The position numbers were made by a program. A DNA stretch of 64,000 nt from Escherichia coli (GTDB lineage: Bacteria; Pseudomonadota; Gammaproteobacteria; Enterobacterales; Enterobacteriaceae): assembly GCF_001677475.2 (NCBI RefSeq), contig NZ_CP015229.1, one strand, 5' to 3'. Of the stretch, positions 54,603 to 57,293 are shown piece after piece (within the stretch, counting starts at the first letter, position 1; each line of letters begins with the position of its first letter).

Positions 54603-57293
54603 TAAGTTTGTATATTAGAATTCCGGCATCACTAATACGTGCAGATATCCGTGTATACTAGACGTATAAATTGTACAGGAGCACGATATCATGACTGCAA
54701 AACGTACCACACAAAGTGTGACCGTCACCGTCGACCGTGAGTTAGTCAATCGCGCTCGTGATGCAGGCTTAAATATGAGCGCCACCCTTACGGTTGCGCT
54801 CAATGCTGAACTTAAAAAACATGCAGCAACACGTTGGCGTGAAGAGAACACAGAAGCTATCGCTGCGTTAAATCAATTGGCTGATGAAACCGGATGTTTC
54901 TCTGATGAGTACCGGAGCTTCTAGCGATGCAATTTACGGTATACCGCAGTCGCGGCAGGAACGCCGCGTTTCCCTTTGTTATCGATGTTACCAGCGACAT
55001 TATTGGTGAGATTAATCGCCGTATCGTTATTCCATTAACACCTATTGAACGATTTAGCCGTATTCGCCCACCAGAACGGCTTAATCCAATCCTTTTACTG
55101 GTAGATGGCAAAGAATATGTGCTCATGACGCATGAGACTGCAACTGTTCCAGTTAACGCGCTGGGAACGACATTTTGCGATGCCAGCGCGCACCGAACGT
55201 TGATTAAAGGAGCATTAGATTTTATGCTCGACGGGATTTAAGACGCGACCGCCTCTCCCTCACCCATATCTTTATGCCGGTTCGACGGCTGGACAAAATA
55301 CTGTTTATCTTCCCAGCGCAGGCAGGTTAATGTACCACCCCAGCAGCAGCCAGTATCCAGCGCGTAAATACCTTCCGGCGTACCTTTGCCTTCCAGCGAT
55401 GCCCAGTGACCAAAGGCGATGCTGTACTCTTCAGCGACAGGGCCAGGAATCGCAAACCACGGTTTCAGTGGGGCAGGGGCCTCTTCCGGCGACTCTTTGC
55501 TGTACATATCCAGTTGCCCGTTCGGGAAGCAAAAACGCATACGGGTAAAGGCGTTGGTGATAAACCGCAGTCTTCCCAGCCCCCGCAATTCCGGTGACCA
55601 GTTATTTGGCATATCGCCGTACATAGCGTCGAGAAAGAAGGGATAGGAGTCGCTCGACAGCACCGCTTCTACATCGCGTGCGCACTCTTTGGCGGTCTGC
55701 AGATCCCACTGCGGCGTGATCCCTGCGTGGGCCATCACCAGCTTTTTCTCTTCGTCGATTTGCAGCAAAGGCTGGCGACGCAGCCAGTTAAGCAGCTCGT
55801 CGGCATCCGGCGCTTCCAGCAGTGGTGTCAGGCGATCTTTCGGTTTATTGCGGCTGATCCCGGCAAATACCGCCAGCAGATGCAGATCGTGATTGCCCAG
55901 CACCAGACGTACGCTGTCGCCTAAGGATTTCACATAGCGCAGAACATCCAGCGAACCCGGGCCGCGCGCGACCAGATCGCCCGTCAGCCAGAGGGTATCT
56001 TTCCCAGGGGTAAATTCTACTTTATGCAGCAATGCGATCAGTTCATCGTAACAACCATGAACGTCGCCAATAAGGTATGTCGCCATATTCTTTTAATGAA
56101 TGAGTGTGGGAACGGCGAGTCGGAATACGGGAATGTCGATGCTGAAAGGGACGCCATTTTCATCGATCATTTCGTAGTGACCCTGCATGGTGCCCAGCGG
56201 GGTTTCAATGATTGCACCGCTGGTGTACTGGTACTCTTCGCCAGGGGCGATAAGTGGCTGGACGCCAACCACTCCTTCGCCCTGGACTTCGGTTTCACGG
56301 CCATTGCCATTGGTGATCAGCCAGTAACGCCCCAACAACTGCACTGGCGCTCGCCCCAGATTGCGTATGGTTACGGTATAAGCAAAAACGTAACGTTCAT
56401 TATCAGGTGAAGATTGTGCCTCAATGTAGACGCTTTGAACCTGAATACACACTCGGGGCGAATTGATCATCGTTAACTCTCCTGCAAAGGCGCGTTCTCC
56501 GCCAGATAGTTCGCCATCTGGCAATATTGCGCGACAGAGATATTTTCCGCTCGCATCGCCGGGTCGATCCCCATTCCTGTTAACACCTCGACGCTAAACA
56601 GGTTGCCGAGGCTGTTACGAATGGTTTTACGACGCTGGTTAAAGGCTTCGGTGGTGATGCGGCTCAACACGCGAACATCTTTAACCGGGTGAGGCATCGT
56701 TGCATGAGGAACCAGGCGCACGACGGCGGAATCCACTTTGGGTGGTGGTGTAAAGGCTGACGGCGGTACTTCCAGCACCGGGATCACGTTGCAATAGTAT
56801 TGCGCCATGACGCTTAATCGACCATACGCCTTGCTGTTCGGTCCTGCAACCAGACGATTCACCACCTCTTTTTGCAACATAAAGTGCATGTCGGCAATGG
56901 CATCAGTATAGCTAAACAGATGGAACATCAACGGCGTGGAGATGTTATAAGGCAGGTTGCCGAAAACACGCAGCGGCTGACCCATTTTCTCGGCCAGTTC
57001 GCCAAAGTTAAAGGTCATCGCATCCTGCTGATAAATCGTCAGTTTCGGGCCTAAGAATGGATGCGTTTGCAGACGTGCCGCCAGATCGCGGTCAAGTTCG
57101 ATGACCGTGAGCTTATCCAGACGTTCGCCGACCGGTTCGGTCAATGCCGCCAGACCGGGACCGATTTCGACCATCGCCTGGCCCTTCTGCGGATTAATGG
57201 CAGAAACAATGCTGTCGATCACGAACTGATCGTTGAGAAAGTTTTGCCCGAAGCGTTTACGGGCTAAATGGCCCTGGTGGACTCGATTATTCA

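Follow-up and report, generated by a model that had tools for sequence, protein, structure and literature searches.

The window, the 64,000-nucleotide (64-kb) stretch of Escherichia coli DNA analyzed here, carries a ccdA-ccdB pair between folA and apaH. On the plus strand, ccdA (54691 to 54924, with its ATG at 54691) encodes a ribbon-helix-helix antitoxin of 77 amino acids (Pfam CcdA, E = 3.6e-26), and ccdB (54927 to 55241) encodes a gyrase-poison toxin of 104 amino acids (Pfam CcdB, E = 1.4e-31), which bears out the ccd names given to these genes in the sequence-only reading. Both genes are intact. The Pfam match covered residues 8 to 77 of CcdA, including the ribbon-helix-helix domain at the N terminus, and phmmer matched the structures of F CcdA, 2ADL and 2H3A (E = 9.4e-6), in an alignment starting at the beta-strand QSVTVTVD; matches of CopG sequences to the N-terminal domain were weak (E about 0.8). 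The Shine-Dalgarno sequence of ccdA, AGGAG, lies at 54677 to 54681 on the plus strand, and its GGAG block is kept in all relatives.

Gene context and the Pfam assignments identified the pair as the chromosomal ccdO157-type islet. Its boundaries were set by comparison with K-12 and O169:H41: the islet extends approximately from 54628 to 55241 on the plus strand and stands in place of the REP-containing spacer that K-12 has between folA and apaH. Homology of the left flank to K-12 and O169:H41 ends at about 54627, and that of the right flank picks up at TTAAGACGC, with TTAA being common to the stop codons of ccdB and apaH. The ccdO157 system of O157:H7 occupies the same folA-apaH locus and encodes near-identical proteins (76 of 77 residues, or 99%, for CcdA and 101 of 104, or 97%, for CcdB), and ccdAB of the window is an allele of it. 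The O157:H7 islet is attributed to Wilbaux 2007 and Mine 2009 in passages of PMC7167474, PMC3184786, and PMC2654758. In the literature searched, which comprised papers other than these two primary reports, we found no description of a ccdO157 operator or promoter. The folA/apaH ccd locus is present in 2,021 of 5,426 complete E. coli genomes.

A candidate CcdA operator had been proposed immediately upstream of the ccdA ribosome-binding site on the basis of three hexamers, GTATAC, GTATAA, and TGTACA, regarded as the repeated palindromes that the antitoxin binds. The stretch from 54649 to 54679 reads ccgtgtatactagacgtataaattgtacagg, and the hexamers are indeed found just 5' of the Shine-Dalgarno sequence, at 54653 to 54658, 54664 to 54669, and 54672 to 54677, respectively, with spacings of 11 and 8 bp. 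Within the 64-kb window, GTATAC occurs 5 times (7.15 expected) and TGTACA 9 times (10.4 expected). Since neither is enriched and 5.7% of all 36-nt windows hold two perfect 6-bp palindromes, the palindromes alone are statistically not compelling. The 80 nt from 54615 to 54694 contain six perfect 6-bp palindromes, a number in the top 0.15% for windows of 80 nt; the relatives conserve none of these six.

The upstream regions of 21 distinct relatives, 55 to 69% identical to the window, could be aligned to it without gaps. This group comprised Photorhabdus, Xenorhabdus, Yersinia, and Dickeya, and a total of 25 upstream regions were gap free through the core, giving the consensus Tat.aTacGTGtAt.....CGTGTA...taCACGtAta....GGAGA. 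Information per column was high at 54639 to 54643, 54650 to 54655, and 54659 to 54664 and near zero at the spacer, 54656 to 54658, which is the pattern of conserved boxes and variable spacers generic to operators of ribbon-helix-helix antitoxins. A profile built from the 21 non-Escherichia relatives had a single match in the 64-kb window, at 54634 to 54668 (20.3 bits, E = 2.4e-5). That short AT-rich palindromes simply arose by chance in horizontally acquired, functionless intergenic DNA probably accounts for the hexamers as such, the counts being at or below expectation, but given this match we consider it extremely improbable as an explanation of the region beneath them. Exact CGTGTA, on either strand, was found 34 times in 1,470 nt upstream of ccdA (in 19 of 21 loci) against twice in 63.8 kb of flanking sequence, an enrichment of about 737-fold, although these counts are not independent events because the relatives share ancestry.

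The conserved columns resolve into three 8-bp boxes with the clade consensus TACGTGTA, two direct and one inverted. Box 1, TACGTGCA, lies at 54636 to 54643 on the plus strand and aligns without gaps to box 1 of the relatives; its core at 54638 to 54643, CGTGCA, is the less common variant in a set that reads CGTGTA, AGTGTA, or CGTGCA. Box 2, TCCGTGTA, lies at 54648 to 54655 on the plus strand, and its core, CGTGTA (54650 to 54655), is exact in 15 of the 21 relatives, with about 1.5 to 2 bits in each column. Box 3, TAGACGTA, is inverted (54659 to 54666, minus strand); its core reads TAGACG for a consensus of TACACG, which is found in 11 of 21 relatives, the others having CGCACG, TGCACG, or CACACG. 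The G at 54661 in box 3 is a C in all 21 close relatives. CGTCTA/TAGACG is, however, the regular outer box in a sister group of plasmids and genomes with the same beta-strand (L003, L018, L023, and others). The box starts, 54636, 54648, and 54659, are 12 and 11 bp apart, the first of these being the modal spacing of direct neighbors in the clade, where inverted pairs are modally 9 bp apart start to start. The three boxes stop 10 nt ahead of the Shine-Dalgarno sequence.

The hexamers picked out earlier are not these boxes. GTATAC consists of the GTA of box 2 followed by the spacer TAC (54656 to 54658), which carries about 0 to 0.4 bits per column; the corresponding position in the gap-free relatives is GTA plus a variable triplet, with 13 different triplets in 21 relatives and TAC in only one. 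GTATAA covers the outer bases of box 3 (G-T-A) together with its flank; the relatives have GTATTC, GTATTT, GTATAA, GCACAC, GCATAC, and others at this place, with good conservation confined to the G and the first A. TGTACA falls in the unconserved linker between the operator and the Shine-Dalgarno sequence, and none of the 21 relatives has TGTACA, or any palindrome, at 54672 to 54677. The repeat conserved among the relatives is CGTGTA/TACACG instead. Hence, the proposed stretch does overlap a comparatively defined operator, 54636 to 54666, upstream of ccdAB, but with other candidate binding sites than those first suggested. We estimate at about 0.7 the probability that 54636 to 54666, as predicted from this comparison, is the operator of the chromosomal, ccdO157-type ccdAB operon.

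The GTATAC-type sites that the sequence-only reading ascribed to the ccd operator of plasmid F do exist there, as seen in the F sequence itself and in PMC5389731, where such palindromes stand about 12 bp apart; the F operator, whose literature includes Tam & Kline 1989, Dao-Thi 2002, Madl 2006, and Vandervelde 2017 (PMC5389731), holds eight boxes in 113 bp, with three GTATAC-like palindromes at its center. Like F, the chromosomal locus has short boxes repeated every 12 bp or so directly upstream of ccdA-ccdB, and its antitoxin belongs to the same Pfam family of ribbon-helix-helix proteins. It differs in the sequence of the box (TACGTGTA/CGTGTA instead of GTATAC), in having three boxes in about 31 bp rather than eight in 113 bp, and in the inversion of one box, which creates a 21-bp palindrome.

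If CcdA recognized GTATAC-type palindromes here as in F, then GTATAC, GTATAA, and TGTACA themselves would be the operator sites. The 11 bp from center to center between GTATAC and GTATAA, as in F, are in line with this, and so is the 7-mer TGTATAC shared by the window and F. The same holds for the alignment of the two antitoxins, in which T6 and T8 of F CcdA are conserved; we take these to be among three DNA-contacting positions of the F beta-strand. However, the two proteins are only 30% identical and R4 is replaced by S, and a search of the window for the 113-bp F operator with nhmmer and blastn-short gave nothing beyond that 7-nt match, the best nhmmer matches lying elsewhere (E > 2). Instead of several GTATAC-like palindromes, the roughly 63 bp of the islet upstream of ccdA hold one perfect and one 5/6 copy, and it is the CGTGTA-type boxes that show the F-like period. 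Only 2 of the 21 relatives have exact GTATAC anywhere upstream of ccdA, whereas 19 have CGTGTA there, and the last three bases of GTATAC are the variable spacer. TGTACA is absent from every relative, and its distance from GTATAA, 8 bp, falls short of about 12 bp. F-like recognition is thus unlikely.

Boxes 2 and 3 together form a 21-bp imperfect palindrome at 54647 to 54667, ATCCGTGTA-TAC-TAGACGTAT, with 7 of 9 arm pairs, as read off the window sequence; its counterpart in Photorhabdus L037 is perfect, ATACGTGTA-gca-TACACGTAT. Lying 10 nt ahead of the Shine-Dalgarno sequence, such an inverted repeat might alternatively fold into a hairpin, in the leader of ccdA or at the 3' end of folA, acting on translation, stability, or termination. 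This appears very improbable: the fold z-score was -0.75, with 45 of 200 shuffled sequences folding at least equally well, there was no Rfam match, and scans of the folA-ccdA interval in the window and in O157:H7 detected no terminator-like site. Moreover, a hairpin leaves box 1, a direct repeat, unexplained, and in other clades the tandem self-palindromes overlap -35- and -10-like elements. Derivation of this region, by deletion, from the long palindrome of Salmonella/Pantoea plasmids, CGTCTAATGAGCCGTGT..ACACGGCTCATTAGACG, was dropped in favor of the gap-free alignment and is still conceivable. A direct repeat, TGTATAYTAGA, was also seen, its copies 43 bp apart and the first being the folA flank; the relatives gave no support for it, whether as a target-site duplication or as a second operator.

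Under our preferred reading, one CcdA dimer would occupy each box, making contact through the N-terminal beta-strand TQSVTVTV, and by analogy with F, the dimers would sit in successive major grooves, with CcdB dimers bridging neighbors. Several weak contacts would then add up to a repression of transcription that depends on the toxin:antitoxin ratio. Since the sequence specificity of F CcdA on its own is low, conservation of the boxes might partly reflect promoter function.

The description of this stretch as the ccd promoter region holds insofar as it is the control region of the ccdAB operon, but the promoter itself is uncertain. In the relatives, a -10-like box (TATGAT, TACAAT, TATACT, or TATAAT) keeps a T-A-n-n-n-T pattern, often after TGn. 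Its remnant in the window, ACTAAT (54631 to 54636, plus strand), lacks T1 and A2 and adjoins the left junction of the islet, and Escherichia has either ACTAAT or ACTGAT at this place. The ancestral -10 box appears, from this comparison, to have been severed at the junction created by the insertion. A candidate replacement lies inside the operator: scanning the O157:H7 allele gave CTGATA-16-TATACT, with 9 of 12 matches, and the -10-like TATACT of the homologous place in the window (54654 to 54659, plus strand), which overlaps GTATAC, may be the new -10. The -35-like hexamer (54632 to 54637, plus strand) is CTGATA in most E. coli but CTAATA in the window, owing to an A at 54634 where O157:H7 has G. 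This version scores 8 of 12, and in a scan of the window allele from 54400 to 55400, no site exceeded the threshold. The window allele is the minority form, 104 of 1,877 genomes being identical to it over 54626 to 54695. TATAAA (54665 to 54670) was also considered as a -10 and is less likely than TATACT, as it lacks T6, has a poor -35, and would place the start on the Shine-Dalgarno sequence.

The state of the promoter bears on whether the boxes still work in Escherichia. They could be decayed remnants, with the promoter lost on insertion, expression coming mainly from folA read-through, and no effective autoregulation. Consistent with this, the ancestral -10 position no longer reads TAnnnT, the folA-ccdA interval is free of terminator-like sites, box 3 has a change in a column that is otherwise invariant, and a strain with a frameshifted ccdB is also changed in box 2; reviews, in addition, call ccdO157 decaying in E. 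coli. With only 20 bits for the window in the search with the clade profile, the site may be weakened. Against decay, neither the CGT core nor the clade spacing has been lost in any of the three boxes, the sister group regularly has TAGACG as a box, both ccd genes of the window are intact, and a promoter-like site, CT(G/A)ATA-16-TATACT, overlaps the boxes. In O157 Sakai, furthermore, the operon is growth-phase regulated, with a 5.3-fold rise on entry into stationary phase. The upstream region also hardly varies between strains of E. coli and E. albertii; at 98% identity within Escherichia, there is too little divergence for constraint in this lineage to be read. We regard decay as possible but rather improbable, and retain 54636 to 54666 as the probable operator.

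Other CcdA clades have boxes of their own at the same period of 12 to 13 bp and in the same position relative to ccdA. Clade B has pairs of CACGTG(TA) boxes, and the Marinobacter-type clade has the palindrome ATGCGCAT twice, at a distance of 12 to 13 bp; in this clade it was counted 31 times upstream of ccdA and not once in 80 kb of flanking sequence. The CcdA beta-strands differ as well, reading KKTVSVTL and KKAxNLS in clade B and the Marinobacter-type clade, compared to TQSVTVTV here. Among ribbon-helix-helix repressors more generally, Arc binds a palindromic operator of about 21 bp, with two dimers on adjacent half-sites, a layout that the 21-bp palindrome resembles. Unlike CcdA, however, Arc, MetJ, and CopG do not belong to toxin-antitoxin systems and have no toxin as corepressor. 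A MetJ box was rejected: AGACGTAT at 54660 to 54667 matches it at 7 of 8 positions, but it is a single, unconserved copy.

Taken together, these observations allow a broader but tentative reading, to which we give clearly less than even odds, in which a period of about 12 bp is fixed across the CcdA family, presumably as a ruler set by CcdB bridging, while the box sequence shifts with the beta-strand, from GTATAC in F to TACGTGTA here and to CACGTG and ATGCGCAT in the other clades. On this reading, after the ancestral -10 had been lost at the junction, the change of the free spacer to TAC would have given rise to a sigma-70 promoter, CTGATA-16-TATACT, within the operator; GTATAC would be a by-product of this reinvention, and the minority A at 54634 would weaken the replacement promoter in the window.

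The analysis has no bearing on any long-standing question. It gives a concrete, testable operator definition for a chromosomal ccdAB system that roughly one in three complete E. coli genomes carries, namely, three boxes with coordinates and with the bases that are expected to matter or not. It also indicates that the F-plasmid operator motif cannot be transferred to distant relatives of CcdA, while the rule of a spacing of about 12 bp appears to be transferable. If the replacement of the promoter is true, the locus would illustrate, on a small scale but clearly, the recovery of regulated expression by a promoterless toxin-antitoxin islet after its insertion.

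The ccdAB genes in the window belong to a chromosomal islet already known from E. coli, the ccd islet. ccdA, a 77-aa ORF starting with the ATG at 54691 (Pfam CcdA, E = 3.6e-26), and ccdB, at 54927-55241 (Pfam CcdB, E = 1.4e-31), are flanked by folA (dihydrofolate reductase) upstream and by the convergent apaH downstream, the position at which reviews place ccdO157, the islet of O157:H7. The encoded proteins are identical to those of O157:H7 at 76/77 (CcdA) and 101/104 (CcdB) residues, and 2021 of 5426 complete E. coli genomes have ccdAB annotated between folA and apaH. Islet limits were drawn by comparing the window with the ccd-less spacers of K-12 and O169:H41. 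Flank homology extends on the left up to about 54627 (tttgtata..gaatt.cggc), indicating that the module brought in no more than about 63 bp of sequence ahead of ccdA, and picks up again on the right at TTAAGACGC; the stop codons of ccdB and apaH overlap in TTAA (55238-55241). The minimal islet (54628-55241, about 610 bp) is composed of this leader, ccdA, and ccdB and replaces the REP-containing spacer of K-12.

The sequence-only reading had proposed short palindromes upstream of ccdA as the CcdA operator. The sequence at 54649-54679, ccgtgtatactagacgtataaattgtacagg, indeed matches its description, with the perfect palindromes GTATAC (54653-54658) and TGTACA (54672-54677), the degenerate copy GTATAA (54664-54669), and, downstream of these and before the ATG, the ccdA Shine-Dalgarno AGGAG (54677-54681). 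Neither GTATAC (5 observed versus 7.15 expected) nor TGTACA (9 versus 10.4) is enriched in the 64-kb window, and 5.7% of 36-nt windows contain two perfect 6-bp palindromes. Six of them (GAATTC, GATATC twice, GTATAC, TGTACA, and TCATGA) lie within the 80 nt at 54615-54694, which is in the top 0.15% of 80-nt windows and may reflect an origin in foreign, AT-rich DNA; no member of this set is conserved among relatives. Pure chance is probably the right explanation for the hexamers as such, but it is hardly credible for the region as a whole. Across the window, 6-bp palindromes are depleted (769 versus about 1,000 expected). A second GTATAC at the ccdB start (54939-54944, codons Val-Tyr), which brings the ccd locus to two of the window's five copies, is probably codon-driven chance.

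CcdA relatives were gathered from plasmids and from one genome per species (305 confirmed, 80 kept), and the 70 nt upstream of ccdA were aligned for 21 distinct relatives with 55 to 69% identity (Photorhabdus, Xenorhabdus, Yersinia, Dickeya, Pectobacterium, Lonsdalea, Serratia, Erwinia, Tatumella, and a record titled Martelella alba). These regions align gap-free to the window across the core, with the consensus Tat.aTacGTGtAt.....CGTGTA...taCACGtAta....aT.c.GGAGA. Information content is high at 54639-54643 (GTGYA), at 54650-54655 (CGTGTA, exact in 15/21 relatives), at 54659-54664 (TACACG and close variants), and at the Shine-Dalgarno, while it is near zero at the 3-bp spacer 54656-54658, for which the 21 relatives have 13 different triplets. 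In the window, the boxes read TACGTGCA (box 1, 54636-54643), TCCGTGTA (box 2, 54648-54655), and, inverted, TAGACGTA (box 3, 54659-54666), with start-to-start distances of 12 and 11 bp. Together with flanking bases, boxes 2 and 3 make up an imperfect 21-bp palindrome (54647-54667, 7/9 arm pairs matching), the equivalent of which is perfect in a Photorhabdus locus (L037). That the element is an RNA hairpin is nevertheless very unlikely, given a fold z-score of -0.75 and no Rfam match. Invariant boxes versus free spacers at about 65% protein identity argue for constraint on these upstream sequences. This alignment does not support the proposed binding palindromes: GTATAC consists of the GTA that ends box 2 and the free spacer, which here reads TAC, as in a single relative (Xenorhabdus, L046); GTATAA overlaps the outer end of inverted box 3; and TGTACA, present in 0/21 relatives, lies in the variable linker.

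With a profile that drew solely on the 21 non-Escherichia relatives, one stretch of the 64-kb window, 54634-54668, scored significantly (20.3 bits, E = 2.4e-5); the runner-up was the same site on the opposite strand. On either strand, exact CGTGTA occurs 34 times in 1,470 nt upstream of ccdA (19/21 loci) versus twice in 63.8 kb of flanks, counts drawn from related, not independent, sequences; exact GTATAC occurs upstream of ccdA in 2/21 loci. Direct neighbouring boxes are most commonly spaced by 12 bp, and the inverted pair by 9 bp start to start (a 6-bp box plus a 3-bp spacer). We therefore favour the CGTGTA-type boxes as the candidate CcdA/CcdB operator, with a probability of roughly 0.7. 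The sequence-only reading thus probably had the neighbourhood and the kind of element right but the motif wrong, the boxes and not the hexamers being conserved.

A smaller but appreciable possibility is that the boxes are a decayed, non-functional remnant: box 3 deviates at a column that does not vary among the 21 close relatives, the window reaches a profile score of only 20 bits, and ccdO157 is reportedly decaying. A sister group with the same beta-strand (TQSVTMTVE; Salmonella, Pantoea, Klebsiella plasmids, and several genomes) has four boxes of the same period, CGTCTA-CGTGTT-TACACG-TAGACG, and the TAGACG of the window is therefore a naturally occurring variant. In E. coli STN0717-11 (L095), box 2 carries an A-to-T change at the homologue of 54655 (GTGTATAC to GTGTTTAC) and ccdB is annotated as frameshifted, which is consistent with the entire module decaying in some lineages.

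Two further resemblances were noted. One is the direct repeat 54609-54619 TGTATATTAGA / 54652-54662 TGTATACTAGA (10/11 matching, 43 bp apart). Its first copy belongs to the folA 3' flank and includes a TTA that ccd-less K-12 and O169:H41 lack, and its second copy falls where boxes 2 and 3 meet; chance, insertion microhomology, or a pseudo-operator may account for the repeat. AGACGTAT (54660-54667) matches 7/8 positions of the MetJ box consensus, AGACGTCT, probably by coincidence, since it occurs only once and the relatives have ACACGTAT.

The ccd operator of the F plasmid does contain GTATAC-type palindromes (PMC5389731; NC_002483), as the sequence-only reading stated. Counted from the ccdA ATG, the F hexamers (L002) are GTATAA at -55, ATATAC at -45, GTATAC at -33, and GTATGT at -22. 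CcdA has at least eight sites in the 113-bp F operator, and the low specificity of F CcdA alone is raised by CcdB bridging (PMC5389731). However, the window proteins are only 30% (CcdA) and 36% (CcdB) identical to those of F, and the upstream regions share no similarity beyond the 7-mer TGTATAC. An F-like hexamer operator in the window is unlikely, as it fails on conservation. When the F-like plasmid pGU2018CL13 (L001, 560-575), whose CcdA is identical to that of F, is compared with F (L002, 296-313), GCATAC takes the place of the one perfect GTATAC of F, and the perfect palindrome is therefore not invariant even inside the F clade.

In the relatives, a T-A-n-n-n-T hexamer (TATGAT, TACAAT, TATACT, or TATAAT), often after TGn, lies 1 to 2 nt upstream of box 1, which would place the operator in the early transcribed region. 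At this position Escherichia has ACTAAT (window) or ACTGAT (most strains), adjoining the islet junction, and the ancestral -10 thus appears truncated. Scanning the window and O157:H7 revealed no terminator-like site between folA and ccdA, making read-through from folA plausible. Inside the candidate operator, O157:H7 has a promoter-like site, CTGATA-16-TATACT (9/12 matches), which in the window is CTAATA-16-TATACT (8/12, under the scan threshold), the candidate -10 TATACT (54654-54659) overlapping GTATAC. Position 54634 is A in the window versus G in most E. coli and E. albertii (CTAATA versus CTGATA), and 54626-54695 is identical to the window in only 104/1877 genomes. Transcription of the ccd operon has been measured in O157 Sakai, where it increases 5.3-fold as cells enter stationary phase (PMC2241611).

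From homology and anatomy, we infer that three CcdA dimers would occupy the three boxes through their beta-ribbons, that CcdB dimers would bridge them as in F, and that the complex would occlude the internal promoter or block transcription from upstream. Madl et al. are said to have found in 2006 that beta-strand residues R4, T6, and T8 of F CcdA contact DNA. Relatives at 41 to 48% identity (beta-strand KKTVSVTL) have CACGTG(TA)-type pairs. A distant clade (L062-L092; Marinobacter, Rheinheimera, Halomonas, and others; beta-strand KKAxNLS) has two ATGCGCAT palindromes 12 to 13 bp apart upstream of ccdA (31 copies in 1,820 nt, 0 in 80 kb of flanks), overlapping TTGCAT and CATAAT-like promoter hexamers (e.g., L064:1393-1467). 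The literature searched gave no description of the clade-specific box of the candidate operator. The element is probably an unremarkable example of a familiar type, the ribbon-helix-helix antitoxin operator; judged from these upstream regions, the period of about 12 bp reported for F recurs across all CcdA clades compared, and the box sequence is clade-specific.
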